Shown one piece after another: positions 3,338 to 13,849 of a stretch of DNA of 25,850 bases. A program made the position numbers and the translations under genes. How positions within the stretch are numbered: position 1 is the first letter of the stretch; the number at the start of each line of letters is the position of its first letter. Below the pieces are notes generated by a model. It worked only from the letters and a program-made list of their open reading frames with translations. It searched no databases and had not been told where the DNA came from. The stretch is taken from assembly GCA_002763225.1 (NCBI GenBank), contig PFAI01000055.1:1-25850 (forward strand), read 5' to 3'. Origin of the DNA: Candidatus Diapherotrites archaeon CG10_big_fil_rev_8_21_14_0_10_31_34 (GTDB lineage: Archaea; Iainarchaeota; Iainarchaeia; Iainarchaeales; 1-14-0-10-31-34).

Positions 3338-3360
3338 ATAGTGCACCATAGTCTACTATG
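3338..3360 (+). promoter_or_regulatory. Putative autoregulatory operator of the TA pair (two overlapping palindromic boxes)
   Basis: ATAGTGCACCAT (3338-3349) and ATAGTCTACTAT (3348-3359) at 10-bp spacing; the second extends to CATAGT-CT-ACTATG and covers the start codon. Confidence 0.6.
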
Positions 3361-3576
3361 GCTACAACAATTCAGATCAGCAAGACTCTTCAGACTGCTT
3401 TGAAGAAAAAAAAGATGTATGAAAATGAAAGCTATGAAGAGCTTATTTGGAATCTCTTAGAGGATTCAATGAAATTAAATGAAGAAACAAAAAAAGATAT
3501 TAAAGAAGCTAGAGCTGATGTGAAAAAAGGTAAATTTTATACTTTAGAGCAGGTTGAGAAAGAAGCAGGACTTTAA
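3358..3576 (+). CDS. Type II antitoxin (archaeal RelB-like, RHH-type N-terminus)
   Basis: MATTIQIS...ESYEELIWNLLE N-terminus, acidic C-terminus GKFYTLEQVEKE; stop directly abuts the toxin ATG (TAAATG). Confidence 0.8.
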   Translation: MATTIQISKTLQTALKKKKMYENESYEELIWNLLEDSMKLNEETKKDIKEARADVKKGKFYTLEQVEKEAGL

Positions 3577-3834
3577 ATGTATCAAATTATTTTTAGTTCT
3601 AAAGCAAAAAAGCAATATTTAAAGCTTGAAAAATCTGTTCAAAAAAGAATTTCTAATTCTTTAAGAAGGCTTAGATTTAATCCTGAAAGGCATTTAACAA
3701 AATTAGTTGAAATTGAAGCTTACAGGTTAAGAGTCGGGGATTATAGATTAATTTTAGAGTTAGAAAAAGACAGGCTTATTATTACAATAATTCAACTCGA
3801 GCACAGAAAAAACATTTACAAAAAAATTGTTTGA
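3577..3834 (+). CDS. relE: RelE/ParE-family mRNA interferase toxin
   Basis: 85 aa basic protein with YRLRVGDYRLI and HRKNIY motifs. Confidence 0.9.
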   Translation: MYQIIFSSKAKKQYLKLEKSVQKRISNSLRRLRFNPERHLTKLVEIEAYRLRVGDYRLILELEKDRLIITIIQLEHRKNIYKKIV

Positions 3835-3841
3835 GTTTTAA

Positions 3842-4618
3842 TTATCTTACGTATGGCAATCCTTTTTCAGGCATGTCTTCTTGTTGCTGTTCTTCTAATT
3901 GCTTGTTTAACTGCTGGAAAGCATTTTCGATTTCTTTTGATTCTTTTTCTATCTGATCCATATTAAGTTTAAAACCGAATTTCAATGAAAGCACTTCAAG
4001 AACTTTTTTTGCCGAACCATGATCTCCATAAATTAATCTAGCGTTTGTTTCTCCCATTAAACATGCTCCAGTAATTTTGTGTTCTGCTGCTAATCCAACA
4101 ATTAATCCTGCTGCACCTGAAATTAATCCTTCCTGATGCCCTTCAATTGCCTTAATTTTTTTGAAACTTTCAAGAAGCTTTTTATCTGTTGAAGCAACAA
4201 CTACTTTTGGCTCTGAATTCATTCTTTTTTCACCTACATTAATTCCTGCTAAAGTATAAATTTCTTTTACTCCTAATTCTTTTGCTGCTAACACAATTTC
4301 TCTTGCAAATTCATAATGTTCTTTTGCTGAAGCAGTTGAAGCATCTAATGCAGGCTGAACTGGACCTGCAAGAAAAATATAATCTTTTTTCTTGTAATTT
4401 AAATGATAAAAATCATCTTTGATTAATTCAATTAAAGATTTTTTTGTGTGAACACTGGGAGGAAAAGAATCAGAAGTTATTTCAGCAATTCTTTCTGCTT
4501 TAAATTGTTTTAGCATGTAATCCACTACAATTTTTCCAACCAAACCTATTCCTGGAAGGCCGGAAAACATTACTGCATTCTTGAATTTTTTTTTCTTTAA
4601 AAATTTTACATTAGTCAT
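3842..4618 (-). CDS. PAC2-family proteasome assembly chaperone (COG2047-like)
   Basis: GLPGIGLVGKI, ISGAAGL, GACLMGET motifs, C-terminal YVR; usual position after aIF2alpha. Start taken as ATG 4618 (track start 4624 is GTG). Confidence 0.88.
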   Translation of the reverse strand: MTNVKFLKKKKFKNAVMFSGLPGIGLVGKIVVDYMLKQFKAERIAEITSDSFPPSVHTKKSLIELIKDDFYHLNYKKKDYIFLAGPVQPALDASTASAKEHYEFAREIVLAAKELGVKEIYTLAGINVGEKRMNSEPKVVVASTDKKLLESFKKIKAIEGHQEGLISGAAGLIVGLAAEHKITGACLMGETNARLIYGDHGSAKKVLEVLSLKFGFKLNMDQIEKESKEIENAFQQLNKQLEEQQQEDMPEKGLPYVR

Positions 4619-4627
4619 AAACACGCC

Positions 4628-5398
4628 TTAATCTTCAATTCTTTTGAATTCTCCTTTTCCGTTTGATTTTGCAATGGTTTCAATTACTTGTTCAACTGAA
4701 TCCTTTAATTTTTTTTCAGCTGACTTGTAGTCAGATGAAACAACTTTAACCTGATATTTTCCTGAACCCAAATAAATTATTTCTGAGTCTTTTCCTGTTT
4801 CTTTTTCTGCTTTAACTAAAACTTTTTTTATTGCTTCAACTCCATCTGGTTCAAAACAAGTTAATTCAAGAATCCCTTTAACTGTTTTAACCGGAATAAT
4901 AATATTTTTTTCAATTAACTCCAAAAGCTCTTTATCCCAAGGCTTTTTAATTACTGAAGGAACTTTTCCTGTTGAAGCAATTTCATTGAATGCTTCAGCT
5001 AAAGAATCAAATTCATCTAATAAAGGTTCAGCAGTGTTTTCCCACACTTCATCAAAAGACATTTTCTTGTTTTTAGCTAAAACTTCAATTAATTTTTTTG
5101 CTCTGAATAATCTATTATAATCTTCTATTTTTCTTCTCTGGACTCCGGAAGAAACTTTAGTTAAACTTAAATCAATCTGGTTTTTGCTTCTGTCAAGTGC
5201 AAGAACCTGAGCTGAACGAATCTGGTTTTCTTTAACATGATTTCTTATGTTTTTAATCCAGCCTGAAGCAACCTGAGAAATATGAATAAACCCTTTTTCA
5301 TTTCCATATTCCAGTAATTCAACAAAAACACCATAATTCAGCACTTTTATCACTCTTACTACTACAATTTCATTTACTTCAGGTAACTCATTTTCCAT
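4628..5398 (-). CDS. eif2a: Translation initiation factor 2 alpha subunit
   Basis: N-terminal S1 domain (PEVNEIVV...YGVFVELLEY...GFIHISQV...WIKNIR...IDLSL), C-terminal DGVEAIK...YLGSGKY...DYKSAE. Confidence 0.95.
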   Translation of the reverse strand: MENELPEVNEIVVVRVIKVLNYGVFVELLEYGNEKGFIHISQVASGWIKNIRNHVKENQIRSAQVLALDRSKNQIDLSLTKVSSGVQRRKIEDYNRLFRAKKLIEVLAKNKKMSFDEVWENTAEPLLDEFDSLAEAFNEIASTGKVPSVIKKPWDKELLELIEKNIIIPVKTVKGILELTCFEPDGVEAIKKVLVKAEKETGKDSEIIYLGSGKYQVKVVSSDYKSAEKKLKDSVEQVIETIAKSNGKGEFKRIED

Positions 5399-5413
5399 TA
5401 AAAAAACCTTTTC

Positions 5414-5605
5414 TTAATTTAAAACCTTAACCACTTTTGCTTCAATAAATGCTTTTGAAGCTGAAGGATAAACCAGAATCTGGCCGCAATCACATTTAAT
5501 TTCTGTGGTTGAAGCAGAAAAAACTTTTCTTTCATTTCCGCATTTAATACATTTTATCAGCAAAAACTTGGTTTTAGGGTTTGGAATAATATTTTTTTTA
5601 GCCAT
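5414..5605 (-). CDS. rps27e: Ribosomal protein S27e
   Basis: PKTKFLLIKCIKCGNE..VFS....IKCDCG..L..P...KA; ATG 5605 preceded by AGGTGA Shine-Dalgarno. Confidence 0.92.
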   Translation of the reverse strand: MAKKNIIPNPKTKFLLIKCIKCGNERKVFSASTTEIKCDCGQILVYPSASKAFIEAKVVKVLN

Positions 5606-5636
5606 GTGTTTCACCTTTTTTTAATTTTATCTTCTT

Positions 5637-6185
5637 TTAATCTATTTTTTCCCCAATTTTTCTTGAAATAAAAAGTTTTGCGATTTTTTGGGGCAATTCA
5701 ACTGTTTCATTTTTCTTAAATGGCCCGTATTCTTTCATATCAGTGCCAATAAAAGAAGGAACATCAGAAAGAACTTTCACTGAAACTTTATTTAAACCCG
5801 TTTCTTTTTCTTTGGTTTTTCCTATAAACACTGAATCAACTAAAGTATTATAAGAATTCAAAATTTTAAGCAATTGAATAAACATTTTTTTTTCTTCTTC
5901 TGCCATTAATTCATTGTTTTCTTCAGCTGTTTTTGAAGCAATTAATGCTTTAGATAAAATCTTTTTTTGTCTTAAACTTAAAATTTCTTCAACCATTTTT
6001 TTCAGGTTAGTAAAACTTCTTGTTTTAGCAAAATCCAAGTCTTTCATTGAATTAAAATAAGATTGTTTTTCCTGTAAAATGAATTCGCTTAAAGAATCAA
6101 AGAAATCTTCTTTTACTTCAACTAACTTGGAAGTGTTTTTTTCTAATCTGTAAATTTTTCTTATTTCGTCGTAATCCAATTCCAT
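5637..6185 (-). CDS. GINS complex subunit, Gins51/Gins15 type (A domain then B domain)
   Basis: Helical A domain (EK....L..V.EDFF, R..KI, EEKKMF) and B domain VLSDVPSFIGTDMKEYGPFKKNETVELP; directly downstream of priS. Confidence 0.88.
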   Translation of the reverse strand: MELDYDEIRKIYRLEKNTSKLVEVKEDFFDSLSEFILQEKQSYFNSMKDLDFAKTRSFTNLKKMVEEILSLRQKKILSKALIASKTAEENNELMAEEEKKMFIQLLKILNSYNTLVDSVFIGKTKEKETGLNKVSVKVLSDVPSFIGTDMKEYGPFKKNETVELPQKIAKLFISRKIGEKID

Positions 6186-6194
6186 TAAATCAAC

Positions 6195-7508
6195 TCAAAT
6201 TCTTTTTTGTTCAATCCCAGCCTTTTCAGAAAAGGCTGGCGAAAACTTTTTGCTCAAACTTTTTCCAAAAGTTTGTTTTTCTGAAAGGTTGGCTGAATTT
6301 CTTGCCATTAAATAAATTGCGGCAAATTCCGGCAAATCTGTTTCTTGTTCTTCAAATGGCCCAAAGTTTTCTCCCCCTAACGAAAATTTCGGGGCAGTTC
6401 TTACAAATACCTTCAGAGGATTAGTTGAAAAAATAATGCTTTCTTTTAAAGGATTAAATTTCATTAATTTTTCTCTTTCAAACTCTGTTGCAGTTAAACC
6501 AGTTGAACCATGAATGGTATTTGGAACACGGATTATTTTAGCTAAATCCACTGAAGTCTGCCTGTCTAAAAACAATTTTTCTTTTTCAACTAAATTAGAT
6601 AAAAGGGATTCCCAAAAATTTTTTGATGAATCGTCAGCCCTGGTTACAGGAAATAAAAAACCATTTTGCATTCCCTTTAAAACCAATTCTTTTTTTTCTA
6701 ATATTTTTTTTATTGTTGAAACCCTTGCATTGCCTAAAGCAGCAATTTTTTCTGCTTCATCTTTTTCAATCATGTTTTTAAGCGAAAAAAGGATTTTTTT
6801 GCTCCAGCCAAAAGCAGTTGATTCCATTGGGCACAACATTTTTTTGTTTGAATAAACAAATCCAAGCTGTTCTAAATCAATTTCCTGCGCCGTAAGAAAA
6901 TCAACTAATTCAATTCTTGCATTAGCATTTAATCCTTGTATTTTTTCACTTCTTAAATGCAGGTGATATCCTTTTCCTCCGGAAAAATTAACTGAAATTC
7001 CTTCAGTGAAATTAAAATCGTTTTCTAAAAAGTTGATTAGCTTTAAAGTCTGTTTTTTTGTTGCTTCAAGGCATTCATCACAAACCCATTCAGTTGTTTC
7101 AGTTGCAGAACCGCAAGAAGGGCATCTTTCAACTAAACCTTTTCCTTCTGCTTTACATTCCCTGCATTTCCATGAATCGTGTTTTTGCTTGCATTCAGTT
7201 TTCAAATCATCTGCATCAAATTCATAAATTATATCTGATTTCAAATATTTTTTTCTTTCCATCGGCCTTTTGTCAGGAAAATCATAGAATGCAGGAGAAT
7301 AAGAAACATAAAAAGGAGTTTTTTCTCTTAAAAAAGAATTGAATTCTTTTGCTGAACCAAAAGAATAATGCCTTGCAATAATTTTTTTTCCATATTCCCC
7401 ATAACCAAATTCTCTTCTTTCAATTTCAGGAACAGAATCAATAAAATTTTCTCGGTAAAAAGAACTGAATTTTTTCCTCAAAAAATCAATTGTCTTTTGC
7501 TCAGCCAT
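6195..7508 (-). CDS. priS: DNA primase catalytic (small) subunit
   Basis: REFG, EFDAD catalytic DxD, FSGGKGYHLH, D....D...IIRVP.TIHG.TGL, GINS-B-like C-terminal domain. Confidence 0.95.
   Translation of the reverse strand: MAEQKTIDFLRKKFSSFYRENFIDSVPEIERREFGYGEYGKKIIARHYSFGSAKEFNSFLREKTPFYVSYSPAFYDFPDKRPMERKKYLKSDIIYEFDADDLKTECKQKHDSWKCRECKAEGKGLVERCPSCGSATETTEWVCDECLEATKKQTLKLINFLENDFNFTEGISVNFSGGKGYHLHLRSEKIQGLNANARIELVDFLTAQEIDLEQLGFVYSNKKMLCPMESTAFGWSKKILFSLKNMIEKDEAEKIAALGNARVSTIKKILEKKELVLKGMQNGFLFPVTRADDSSKNFWESLLSNLVEKEKLFLDRQTSVDLAKIIRVPNTIHGSTGLTATEFEREKLMKFNPLKESIIFSTNPLKVFVRTAPKFSLGGENFGPFEEQETDLPEFAAIYLMARNSANLSEKQTFGKSLSKKFSPAFSEKAGIEQKRI
6217..6292. repeat. Cluster of short palindromes inside the priS 3' end
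   Basis: CCAGCCTTTT-CAG-AAAAGGCTGG (6217-6239), CAAACTTTT-TCC-AAAAGTTTG (6255-6275), and a degenerate half-copy TTTTCTGAAAGGTTGG (6277-6292). Confidence 0.75.
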
Positions 7509-7546
7509 GGAAATAATTCTGAAAGGAAATGATTAAAATAGAAAAA

Positions 7547-7612
7547 TAACCCTTTAACAAAGGGTTAAACCAAACAAAATTTTTAGCAATTGCCTTTTTC
7601 TGAAAAAAAAGG
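7547..7612. repeat. Two short palindromes upstream of priS
   Basis: TAACCCTTT-AAC-AAAGGGTTA (7547-7567) and CCTTTTT-CTGAAA-AAAAAGG (7593-7612). Confidence 0.65.
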
Positions 7613-7641
7613 AAAAGCTAAAGAAAAAAAAAGAAAAAAAA
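7603..7641 (-). terminator. Oligo-U tracts downstream of the acidic micro-ORF (candidate archaeal terminator)
   Basis: Several A8-A9 runs on plus, i.e. T8-T9 runs on minus, starting about 14 nt after the TGA at 7655. Confidence 0.45.
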
Positions 7642-7654
7642 GGAGTTAACAAAA

Positions 7655-7759
7655 TCAATAAGAGTCTTCTAAGTCTTCTGCCGGCTCTTCATCATCATCT
7701 GTTTTTTCGTCTTCTCCCCAATCTTCTTCTTCTTGGAATTTAAAAAAATCTAATTTCAT
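7655..7759 (-). CDS. Unannotated 34-aa highly acidic small protein
   Basis: MKLDFFKFQEEEDWGEDEKTDDDEEPAEDLEDSY; 17 of 34 residues D/E; GGAGG 8 nt before ATG; GAA/GAT-rich coding-like composition within otherwise A/T-run intergenic DNA. Confidence 0.65.
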   Translation of the reverse strand: MKLDFFKFQEEEDWGEDEKTDDDEEPAEDLEDSY

Positions 7760-7807
7760 TTTAACGTCCTCCACAAAATGATAAATTAAAAGTAAACAAT
7801 AGGTTAT

Positions 7808-8848
7808 TTATTTGGTTTCGGTTTGCTTAATTCCTGCCTTTTTAATGCTTTTGAGATTTCTGATGTAATAACCTAAAGGGCTTTTGATTCCTGAACAAGA
7901 ATCATTTCTTAAGCACAAACCATGTTCTACAACTTTATCGCAGGACGGAGAAGAATACCTTGGTTTTTCTTTTATTCCTTTAATGTTTTTGAAATGATAT
8001 AAAACCATGTTTTCTTTGAAGTTTGATGCCCTGGAATAAAGCTTTAAAAAGTCTTCTTGGGTTATTCTGCCGTTAATTAAAAAACAAGCTAAATCAAAGT
8101 TTGCAATATGAGGCAATTTAGAACCAGAAGAAAGCTTTTCATGCAAAAAGCTCATGCAAGGCGGAAAAACATCTGTTTTCAGATTTCCTGAAAACCTGAA
8201 TTCAGGAAGAGTTTTTTTAAGAGAAAACAAATCCTGTTTTAATTGTTTAGCGTTTTCTTTGAATGACTTTGGAATGTTTTTTGTTTCAAGAGGCAGTGAT
8301 AAAAAAATTTTGTTGTAAACTAAAGCAGAAATAAATCTCATTGCATCATTTTTGGTCAAAAACACTTTTCCTTTTGAAATATTCTGGTTAACTAACTTTA
8401 AATCTTTAAAAAAAGGAAGAGAAAGAAAGTTCATTAAATCAATTGAAACCAAAAAACCGTTTTTATCTGATAAAGAATATTTTACTCCAAAATCATCAAA
8501 TAACTCGAAAAGAGTTTCATTGTTTTTTTCTTTTCCAAGAAATTTAAATGTATTAAAAGAAAAAGTTAAAGCAAACTTTCTGTTTAAGTCAATTGAACGG
8601 ATTTCAGACAACAAGATTTTTGCCACAGGAAAAGCATAAATTTCATTTAACATTAATTCAGTTGAAGCAGAAATTTCATTCAAAAAATAAGTTTTCTTTT
8701 TAAATGAATTCAAAAGAAGTATTTTTGCTCTTTCATTTATTTGTTCTGAAACATCTTCTAACAAAAATTTTTCTTTTTTAATAATGTTTTTTGCCTTGTT
8801 TGAAAAAGGAAATCTTTGGGCAAAAATCAATTCCTGTTTTGTAGGCAT
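7808..8848 (-). CDS. priL: DNA primase large (regulatory) subunit with Fe-S domain
   Basis: RFPF N-terminus, LKLVNQ.I.KGKVFL, FPPCM, YSSPSC......LC....C..IKSPL.YY (four Cys). Confidence 0.9.
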   Translation of the reverse strand: MPTKQELIFAQRFPFSNKAKNIIKKEKFLLEDVSEQINERAKILLLNSFKKKTYFLNEISASTELMLNEIYAFPVAKILLSEIRSIDLNRKFALTFSFNTFKFLGKEKNNETLFELFDDFGVKYSLSDKNGFLVSIDLMNFLSLPFFKDLKLVNQNISKGKVFLTKNDAMRFISALVYNKIFLSLPLETKNIPKSFKENAKQLKQDLFSLKKTLPEFRFSGNLKTDVFPPCMSFLHEKLSSGSKLPHIANFDLACFLINGRITQEDFLKLYSRASNFKENMVLYHFKNIKGIKEKPRYSSPSCDKVVEHGLCLRNDSCSGIKSPLGYYIRNLKSIKKAGIKQTETK

Positions 8849-8903
8849 AAAAGAATTATGGATTAAAAGGAATAAAAATATAGGGTAAAGGGGTTTACAT
8901 GAA

Positions 8904-9629
8904 TTAAAGAATCATATGAGCTAAATGGAATTGAATTTGACTGCCTCCAATTGAATAAGAAACTTTCATTGGAGCATCACCTTTTAGCTCTAATTTGATT
9001 TTTGAGTCAGGCTCGGCTTCTTTAACAATATTTGAAAGGAAATTCAGAGAATATTTGCTTACTACTTCTGAATTAGTTTTAACTATAACTTTTTTTGCTT
9101 CTTTTGCAACAGTTTTAAGTGTTCCTGAAGAACCTCTTGCTTCAATCATAAACTGATTTCCTTTTGCTCTTAATACAACTGAACTGCCAAACAATGAAGC
9201 ATCTTTTAGTGCTTCTTTGAATATTCTTGCATTGATTTCAATTGTTGCATCAAACTTTGTTGAAGGAACATTAATTTCTTGTTCTGAAACATCAATTAAT
9301 GGTAATCTAAAACTTCTTGATAGTTCTCCTGCAAAATGAATTGACATTTCGTTTTCAGTTAAATCCAAAGTCATTCTGTCATTAGGCAATAATCTTGACA
9401 TTATTTTGTTTAATTCAACTAAATCTACTCCAACATAAGTTGGTTCAATTACATATTTGTCAAAAGAACTTTTGGTTATAGCATAATCAACTAAAACAAT
9501 TTGGCTTGGATCAATGGCTTTAAAGCTTATTCCTGAATCATTGAAACGAAAATTTCCTTCTGAAATAAAAGTTGAAATAGCATTAATTGCTTTAGCCCAG
9601 GAATCAGTTTTTTTTAATTCAATTGCCAT
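8904..9629 (-). CDS. pcn: PCNA sliding clamp, paralog B (divergent C-terminus)
   Basis: KAIDPSQIVLV, GVDL, FRLPLID, KYSLNFL, DAPMKVSY; ends QFHLAHMIL. ATG 9629 follows a G8 run that may act as SD. Confidence 0.92.
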   Translation of the reverse strand: MAIELKKTDSWAKAINAISTFISEGNFRFNDSGISFKAIDPSQIVLVDYAITKSSFDKYVIEPTYVGVDLVELNKIMSRLLPNDRMTLDLTENEMSIHFAGELSRSFRLPLIDVSEQEINVPSTKFDATIEINARIFKEALKDASLFGSSVVLRAKGNQFMIEARGSSGTLKTVAKEAKKVIVKTNSEVVSKYSLNFLSNIVKEAEPDSKIKLELKGDAPMKVSYSIGGSQIQFHLAHMIL

Positions 9630-9717
9630 TATATCCCCCCCCAACTACAAACCTAATCATATTATACTTAGTTAATCCTTTTAAATTATTCTGACAGCAA
9701 ATAAAAAGAGGAGAAAA

Positions 9718-13102: not shown

Positions 13103-13849
13103 CTAAGATGATTCAATTCTTGGAGCCAAAAAGTACTGGATTTCAGCTTTTCCGATTGAATAATTTATTTTAACCGGAGCATTGCTTTTCAAAGACAACT
13201 CAATTAAAGTGTCTGATGTAGCTGCTTTCATCATGTCCTGCATGTAATCCAAAGGAAACATTGCATAACATTCTTTTTTTGCATTTAATTCCTTTAAGTT
13301 TTTGTCTTCTTTAGTTATTTCATTAACTGTTTCTCCTTTTGAAGAACCGGCTTTAATAAAAAAGTTTTTTGATGTAACCCCTAAAGTTACATGAGTGGAA
13401 ACCAAAGAAGAATCTTTTAATCCATCCTGAATTAATCCTGCATTAACTTTTATTACTGCATCAAACTCCACTTTAGGAGTAGGCAAATCAGAAGAAGAAA
13501 TATCAATTAAGGGAACAGAAAAATTTCTTGTTGAACTTCCTTTGAATTCAACATTTAGTCTTGAATCCTTTTCATTTAATTCAATAATCAATTTTTCTCC
13601 TGCTTTGCATCTGTTTAACACCTGGCTTAAATAATCTAAATCTAACCCAATTTTTGTTTCTGCTTCAATTTTGTATTCGCTGAAAGCTTCTTTTGGCATT
13701 CTGAAATCAATCATTGAAATCTGGCTTGGATCAGTTGCCTTTAATCTTAATCCATCTTTTGAAACAATTAATTCTGCTTCATCAATCAAAACAGAAACTG
13801 CATCAATTGCTTTCTTGAATTCTGCTGCATTATCTAAAACTAATCTCAT
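13103..13849 (-). CDS. pcn: PCNA sliding clamp, paralog A (canonical)
   Basis: KATDPSQISMI, IGLDL, FSVPLID, FPLDYM, YFLAPRIE; AGGTG SD. Confidence 0.96.
   Translation of the reverse strand: MRLVLDNAAEFKKAIDAVSVLIDEAELIVSKDGLRLKATDPSQISMIDFRMPKEAFSEYKIEAETKIGLDLDYLSQVLNRCKAGEKLIIELNEKDSRLNVEFKGSSTRNFSVPLIDISSSDLPTPKVEFDAVIKVNAGLIQDGLKDSSLVSTHVTLGVTSKNFFIKAGSSKGETVNEITKEDKNLKELNAKKECYAMFPLDYMQDMMKAATSDTLIELSLKSNAPVKINYSIGKAEIQYFLAPRIESS

Follow-up and report, generated by a model that had tools for sequence, protein, structure and literature searches.

A short acidic open reading frame (micro-ORF) was found on the minus strand between the primase genes priL and priS (positions 7655-7759 of the window, that is, the whole stretch of 25,850 nucleotides that was analyzed), and its product is MKLDFFKFQEEEDWGEDEKTDDDEEPAEDLEDSY. 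Comparison of orthologous loci indicates that the micro-ORF is very probably a real protein-coding gene. We prefer the reading, with a probability of about one in three, that this gene is genuine, translated and restricted to one genus and that its product is a disordered polyanionic ligand, co-expressed with PriL and docking on a basic nucleic-acid-binding surface, most likely that of the primase.

Gene neighborhood of the micro-ORF

The window is contig 14 of the source assembly (1.04 Mb, 65 contigs, 30% G+C, 81% complete), whose organism, an Iainarchaeum-type archaeon with a small genome, we take to belong to DPANN. According to Pfam assignments of the neighboring genes, the order on the minus strand is PCNA, PriL, micro-ORF, PriS, GINS51, ribosomal protein S27e, aIF2-alpha and a PAC2-family protein. 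The features of the locus are as follows:

13103-13849, minus strand: second PCNA paralogue
8904-9644, minus strand: PCNA paralogue upstream of priL (Pfam PF00705 and PF02747; likely start ATG at 9629)
7808-8848, minus strand: priL, primase large subunit, 346 aa, net charge +22 (Pfam PF04104, E 4e-19)
7781..7791, minus strand: TATA-like element TTTTAATTTAT, at -32..-22 from the micro-ORF ATG
7768..7772, minus strand: Shine-Dalgarno sequence GGAGG, exactly 8 nt 5' of the micro-ORF ATG
7655-7759, minus strand: micro-ORF, start ATG 7759-7757, stop TGA 7657-7655, 34 codons and a stop codon
residues 3-11 of the micro-protein: head L-D-F-F-K-F-Q-E-E, conserved, aromatic
residues 10-31 of the micro-protein: polyanionic middle; the C-terminus is D-S-Y
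7641-7634 (T8), 7632-7624 (T9) and 7610-7603 (T8), minus strand: oligo-T tracts, the first one 13 nt 3' of the micro-ORF stop
7537..7567, minus strand: terminator-like hairpin TAACCCTTTGTTAAAGGGTTA followed by a T-rich tail (1 site versus a mean of 0.3 in shuffles)
6195-7508, minus strand: priS, primase catalytic subunit, 437 aa (Pfam PF01896)
5637-6185, minus strand: GINS51 (Pfam)

In the region 3842-9644 (minus strand), PCNA, priL, priS and GINS51 adjoin the translation genes for S27e and aIF2-alpha and the PAC2-family gene; this is the replication-translation gene neighborhood that has been known for a long time from archaea. The two PCNA paralogues of the window are about 35% identical and lie 3.5 kb apart. 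Within the genus, the PCNA copy beside priL is 88-94% identical, while PriL is only 69-74% identical. Two PCNA matches were found in 40 of the 41 genomes of the order, and the PCNA pair is thus an order-wide trait. The preliminary description had suggested that the micro-protein forms a module with the atypical PCNA-B. This suggestion is weakened, since the micro-protein is limited to one genus and its slot in the sister genera contains an unrelated hydrophobic ORF; the PCNA pair and the micro-protein therefore do not make a co-evolving pair.

The PriS of the window is longer than that of the congeners (437 aa versus 405-407 aa) and has about 30 extra basic C-terminal residues (about 409-437; 6195-6281, minus strand), weak look-alikes of which were found on contig 6 of G000 and contig 56 of G003 (E about 1e-5). 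On the plus strand, an 85-aa ORF of the ParE toxin family (3577-3834; PF05016, E 8e-8) directly follows a 72-aa ORF without a family (3358-3576), and this pair resembles a type II toxin-antitoxin pair. Seven runs from seven groundwater-metagenome studies, with the possible source run excluded, contained 61-96% of the sampled words of the region 6195-9644, which indicates that this organism, or strains very close to it, can be found repeatedly in groundwater data.

Translation and transcription signals

The product of the micro-ORF consists of Asp and Glu in 17 of 34 positions, contains a single Trp (W14), ends in Tyr and includes no Cys or His residues. The elements listed in the preliminary description (GGAGG 8 nt before the ATG, 34 aa, 50% D/E, the LDFFKF head, a lone Trp, a terminal Tyr and downstream U-tracts) are all present, on the minus strand. 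The 60-nt regions upstream of 844 crude gene starts of the whole genome contain 47 GGAGG sites; 35 of these begin at -15..-10, with a mode at -12/-13, and the GGAGG of the micro-ORF begins at -13. As judged by its sequence, this ribosome-binding site is among the strongest of the genome. An in-frame GTG located upstream (7774) is an alternative start that would give a product of 39 aa, and the ATG is preferred because of its distance from the Shine-Dalgarno sequence.

The motif TTTAA[TA] has a peak at starts -31..-27 (90 of 408 occurrences in the 844 upstream regions), and the TTTAAT of the micro-ORF begins at -31. The TATA-like element is similar in five of the seven orthologous spacers (window, L041, L003, L004 and L005) and weaker in L002 and L006. 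Being placed as in the leaderless promoters of this genome, it could possibly add an internal start.

The distance between the priL TAA and the micro-ORF ATG is 48 nt and contains no T run of at least five, so priL transcripts should continue into the micro-ORF. We infer that the micro-ORF is the last cistron behind priL, its strong Shine-Dalgarno sequence serving internal initiation. Oligo-T is known to terminate archaeal transcription, and the tracts at 7603..7641 are likely to be the transcription end of the priL/micro-ORF unit, which they would close together with the hairpin. At least two T runs of at least five were found inside the 60 nt past the micro-ORF stop in all six orthologous loci having downstream sequence. 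Hairpins of other sequences were found by eye at the equivalent place downstream of the micro-ORF in L041 (about 1698-1722) and L003. Each of the three hairpins between the micro-ORF and the priS promoter (window, L041 and L003) is accompanied by T runs, and they look like bacterial-type intrinsic terminators in an archaeon. The priS gene has its own TATA-like element TTTTAAT at 7538-7532 (-30..-24), which is the modal position genome-wide, and no Shine-Dalgarno sequence. In five loci (window, L041, L003, L004 and L005), priS is located within about 90-400 nt of the micro-ORF; in the genome G001, a 191-aa ORF is located between them.

Orthologs within the genus and evidence for coding

DNA around priL was taken from 40 relatives; a match was obtained in 41 of 41 genomes, and 30 loci were read. 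An acidic ORF was found 47-48 nt after the priL stop in each of the five other genomes of the genus, whose PriL proteins are 69-74% identical (in G004, the contig ends within the copy), and a metagenome contig with an 85% identical PriL contains MKLDFFKFQEEDDSWEEEPTEEEEPKEDLEGSY in the same slot. The orthologs were found by their position after priL, and a tblastn search with the single micro-protein peptide against the 30 priL loci returned only the peptide itself. A scan of genome contigs with PriL alone gave no matches, while an alignment-based scan did. A profile search of a library of 1.84 billion proteins added an eighth sequence (P0008), in which the head is kept and the end reads ...VEDTEESF.

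The alignment gives the head consensus [DE]-hydrophobic-[YFI]-[KR]-[FL]-Q-E, where the Gln and the next Glu are invariant. The middle is alike in composition only (D/E 41-54%, net charge -12 to -18, 0 to 6 Pro residues). The C-terminal S-F or S-Y is present in six of the seven complete sequences (window, L041, L004, L005, L006 and P0008); the L003 protein ends in D-E-V and lacks the terminal aromatic residue, and the L002 copy is cut by the contig end. The lengths of the orthologs vary from 33 to 43 aa, with the head and the C-terminal S-F/Y staying in frame, which means that several insertions and deletions have occurred and that every one of them preserved the frame.

The hidden micro-protein gene between priL and priS that the preliminary description had proposed is supported by the syntenic ORF, the open frame and the Shine-Dalgarno sequence. 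The in-frame ORF is present in all five congeneric genomes and in the metagenome contig, and its frame contains no stops in any of the seven orthologous loci, while each of the five other frames is stopped in at least four of the seven. This includes frame 2, which is as purine-rich as the micro-ORF frame and is stopped in five of the seven loci (60-69% of the region is purine). The (A)AGGAGG of the micro-ORF is kept in all seven loci. Frame-disrupting variation and codon-level conservation, which had been named as checks, gave results in the same direction. The sole public contig that covers the micro-ORF (from four DNA runs) has A>G at 7721 (plus strand), a synonymous change in the third position of codon 13 that is weak evidence at a depth of 3; this population variant leaves the frame intact. 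Between the micro-ORF and its closest relative, 33 codons show 12.5 non-synonymous and 5.5 synonymous differences, giving a dN/dS of 0.32 that is based on a small sample of 18 substitutions; the dN/dS of priL in the same pair was 0.14. A six-frame translation of the whole genome yielded 19,630 ORFs with a length of 25 aa or more. The head motif occurs once among them, in the micro-ORF itself, and one other ORF of 25-80 aa with an M start has at least 38% D/E (27 aa, contig C55).

Distribution of the family and the priL-priS slot in other genomes

A search of 196 genomes of the order with the family profile revealed six members, all from the genus, with E values from 4e-13 to 1e-5. Nothing credible was found in the 190 other genomes of the order, where four matches with E values of 0.06-0.6 span 10-19 residues and are regarded as noise; the same profile search indicates that the family is absent from all three sister genera. 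Of the named loci of the order, 57 extend 200 nt or more past priL; a small acidic ORF follows priL in four of these, and in all four, PriL is at least 69% identical. Two matches were obtained in a search of 5.8 billion proteins and four in the library of 1.84 billion representative proteins; the latter are all 37-45 aa long, so there is no fused long form in that library. From these data, the micro-protein family is confined to one genus, which is uncultivated. One of the database sequences, P0002, is a copy of the window micro-protein with 37 aa and the end ...SYWFC, in which the TGA was read as Trp. This looks like a gene-calling artefact on a low-GC contig, since the neighboring genes are full-length under table 11.

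In 24 of the 57 loci, priL and priS abut or overlap, with a gap of -14 to +33 nt. In the sister genera (L007, L008 and L019), the slot contains an unrelated hydrophobic ORF of 68-78 aa, and in other families (L010 and L016), a different hydrophobic ORF of 74-75 aa is found there. The acidic gene is thus a genus-level novelty in a spacer opened between two once-coupled genes. The small ORFs found elsewhere are membrane-like and belong to two unrelated types, and the junction of priL and priS looks like an insertion hotspot for small genes.

Database searches and rejected origins

No match to any of the seven micro-protein members was found in Pfam (E up to 1), NCBIfam or PHROGs, and a PDB profile search with the family gave no matches at E up to 10. 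In the ESM Atlas, the best score was 0.78, which is under the level reached by shuffled proteins and gives no lead. The PIP pattern Q-x-x-[LIVM]-x-x-[aromatic]-[aromatic] and the APIM pattern [KR]-[FYW]-[LIVA]-[LIVA]-[KR] were found in none of the eight sequences, either forwards or reversed, in agreement with the preliminary remark that the head is not a canonical PIP box. The listed titles and abstract openings of papers on archaeal primase, on small acidic and DNA-mimic proteins and on PriL/PriS in DPANN contain no account of such a gene. By these searches, the micro-protein is a new small orphan family. Acidic disordered mimicry with aromatic anchors is already known, and here it would be free-standing and archaeal.

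Several other origins were considered and rejected. An RNA gene at 7300-8000 was rejected because the five Rfam matches are all far under the gathering scores. By eye, the head L-D-F-F-K-F resembles I-D-F-L-R-K-K-F at the 5' end of priS, which could point to a duplication; PriS was absent among the 8,541 head-profile matches listed, and the DNA local alignment score of 21 was reached in 394 of 1,000 dinucleotide shuffles. The micro-protein was also not accepted as a split-off tail of the single-stranded DNA-binding protein (SSB), as the SSB of the same genome retains its own acidic tail. This SSB (177 aa, crenarchaeal-type, PF21473; G000 contig 44, 3602-4135, minus strand; L134) combines an OB fold with a long acidic tail rich in Asp and Ser. 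Among ORFs with 70 aa or more, the genome encodes just one other acidic C-terminal tail, that of a ParA/MinD-like ATPase (contig 32).

Predicted properties and possible mode of action

Modeling of the micro-protein using AlphaFold2 led to a model with a mean pLDDT of 61.4 and a pTM of 0.15, in which residues 4-11 alone form a helix; the low confidence cannot prove disorder. On this model, the micro-protein is probably intrinsically disordered. On a helical wheel of the head, residues L3, F6, Q9, F5 and F8 together form a single broad non-polar face centered on the invariant Gln, and D4, K7 and E11 are located opposite. Co-folding of PriS, PriL and the micro-protein, each supplied as an alignment, gave a score of 0.00, which counts neither for nor against binding. 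Net charges in the genus are +16 to +25 for PriL and 0 to +8 for PriS. An unusually high basicity of PriL in this genus was considered and rejected, since its range is not distinguishable from that of the sister genera without the ORF (+18 to +25).

By analogy with other acidic proteins, the micro-protein may bind a replication protein by mimicking nucleic acid. It would act in trans as a disordered, nucleic-acid-like ligand anchored by the head, as a short amphipathic helix, and by the carboxylate of the C-terminal aromatic residue, with the acidic chain placed over a basic DNA- or RNA-binding surface of the partner. The strongly basic PriL or the co-expressed PriS-PriL primase would be the likeliest target, because PriL is so charged and the micro-ORF has a fixed place behind its gene and is probably co-transcribed with it. 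The micro-protein could compete with the template or primer, or tether or modulate the primase, in the way that the acidic, aromatic-ended tails of SSB proteins act on their partners. The DNA-mimic or clamp/primase-regulator role of the preliminary description is likewise a conditional reading.

Several observations speak against a ligand of the primase. The family is found in one genus only, and the sister genera, with equally basic PriL proteins (+18 to +25), lack the gene; hence, the primase does not require the micro-protein. In addition, the L003 protein ends in Val, and the SSB of the organism is already acid-tailed. A middle alike in composition only, with 0 to 6 Pro residues, also fits a weakly constrained young gene. 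In a further step, the micro-protein could be seen as a free "SSB-tail-like" mimic of nucleic acid that acts in trans, as a third primase subunit with a regulatory role in this archaeon, and that was born de novo in the spacer after the ancestrally overlapping priL and priS parted; we consider this rather unlikely.

Alternative explanations

The same type of ligand may have another basic partner: a PCNA paralogue, the OB fold of the SSB (as a mimic of ssDNA or of the tail), a polymerase, or chromatin or ribosomal proteins for which it would be an electrostatic chaperone. The place behind priL would then reflect only the site where the gene originated, and adjacency by itself indeed says little about a partner. 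The two genes upstream are PCNA and priL, S27e and aIF2-alpha are encoded in the same cluster, and a free tail-like peptide could compete with the acidic tail of the SSB. As for PCNA, the eight sequences contain no PIP or APIM motif, and the paralogue pair is found across the order (40 of 41 genomes), in contrast to the micro-protein, which is limited to one genus. Another partner is possible, if doubtful. A ligand of the primase has also to be weighed against explanations in which the peptide itself matters little. Translation of the acid-rich ORF at the end of the priL message could act in cis, for example by setting the flow of transcription or translation towards priS. The genes priL and priS ancestrally abut or overlap (24 of 57 loci) and are apart in this genus, so the micro-ORF sits exactly at the point of the lost coupling; the T tracts begin 13 nt after its stop, and D/E runs are known to destabilize translating bacterial ribosomes. 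A translated spacer of this kind nevertheless appears unlikely. The 191-aa ORF before priS in G001 speaks against a dedicated priS leader, priS has a TATA-like element of its own at the modal position, and the head motif, the invariant Gln, the C-terminal S-F/Y and the middle kept in composition would be expected from selection on the product.

A recently arisen ORF, specific to this lineage, with hardly any function or none and kept open mainly since a purine-rich (GAA/GAT) spacer seldom makes stops, would account for the restriction to one genus, the purine content of 60-69%, the middle that is alike in composition only and the unrelated small ORFs in the slot of the sister genera. It would not explain why the equally purine-rich frame 2 is stopped in five of the seven loci, why every length change preserves the frame, why the strong Shine-Dalgarno sequence is found at the optimal distance in all seven loci, or why the head and the C-terminal S-F/Y persist down to 69% PriL identity, and we regard it as quite improbable. 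The micro-ORF could also be a C-terminal extension of PriL produced by read-through of the priL TAA, as it lies 16 codons further on in the same frame as priL. A single TAA is all that separates the two in-frame sequences in the window, L041 and L003. The priL frame is shared in six of the seven loci; this is a by-product of the conserved 48-nt spacing. Read-through is blocked in four of the seven loci, by extra in-frame spacer stops in L004, L006 and L002 and by the 47-nt spacing in L005, which puts the micro-ORF out of frame. Its own Shine-Dalgarno sequence and ATG are present in all loci, and no fused long form was found among 1.84 billion proteins, so this reading, which has a negligible likelihood, was rejected.

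Comparison with known systems

Contacts of the bacterial SSB with primase are known. One of the two nearest analogies of the putatively disordered micro-protein is provided by the disordered acidic tails of SSB proteins (T7 gp2.5 and the C-terminal tip of bacterial SSB), which likewise consist of a D/E run ending in a C-terminal aromatic residue and are encoded among replication genes. According to PMC12339929, SSB-type acidic tails attach to basic patches on replication enzymes and are competitors of ssDNA; T7 gp2.5, for instance, contacts a basic patch on the polymerase through its acidic, disordered C-terminal tail, and titles cited there describe the terminal Phe of gp2.5 as essential. Unlike these tails, the micro-protein is a stand-alone product with its own Shine-Dalgarno sequence and stop and no OB fold attached, the SSB being encoded by a separate gene on another contig. 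It also has an extra conserved aromatic head at the N-terminus, its terminal motif is S-F/Y versus P-F in bacterial SSB, it comes from an archaeon, and searches of PDB, Pfam, NCBIfam and PHROGs revealed no homologous sequence.

Eukaryotic complexes contain small subunits, DSS1/Sem1 and CSNAP, that are acidic and disordered; the micro-protein is also similar to these in being small, highly acidic and probably disordered, with a few conserved aromatic residues. PMC11329725 describes how DSS1, a small acidic protein, shuts off DNA binding of BRCA2 HD-OB1, and blocking of a partner's DNA binding by DSS1 is also mentioned in PMC7641332 and PMC8442969. However, the micro-protein is half the size of these subunits and is found in one archaeal genus, and none of its seven members matches Pfam, including DSS1_SEM1, at E up to 1. 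With the folded DNA mimics Ocr and ArdA, it shares dense carboxylates that could fill DNA-binding sites. Mimics of the Ocr/ArdA type have about 10-20 kDa and fold into a shape resembling B-DNA, whereas the micro-protein has 34 aa and no confident fold (pLDDT 61, pTM 0.15) and is encoded in a cellular replication cluster, not in a mobile element.

Like PIP-box and APIM peptides, the micro-protein has paired aromatic residues with an invariant Gln beside them, and its gene is one gene from a PCNA gene. The order of these residues is aromatic-aromatic-K-aromatic-Q and not Q-x-x-h-x-x-a-a as in the PIP box. The acid-rich leader peptides of the MgtL type in bacteria are likewise encoded by very short, D/E-rich ORFs with termination signals close behind, and their mechanism is, to our knowledge, found in bacteria only. 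In contrast to these leaders, the micro-ORF appears to be located at the 3' end of an operon and not directly before a regulated gene (one congener has an intervening gene), and its product has conserved terminal motifs.

Significance

Should the micro-protein prove to bind the primase, or some other protein of replication, and to modulate it, then archaeal replication would have its first stand-alone acidic "tail" regulator, and the gene would be a clean case of a functional micro-protein overlooked by annotation cut-offs. Its origin can be bracketed between the sister genera, from an ancestral overlap of priL and priS to a spacer and then to a new gene. If there is no partner, the micro-ORF would still be a well-documented, conserved orphan micro-ORF in a reduced genome. 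If the micro-protein is a third primase subunit, it would represent a rare, datable replication regulator that arose from non-coding DNA within a single DPANN genus.
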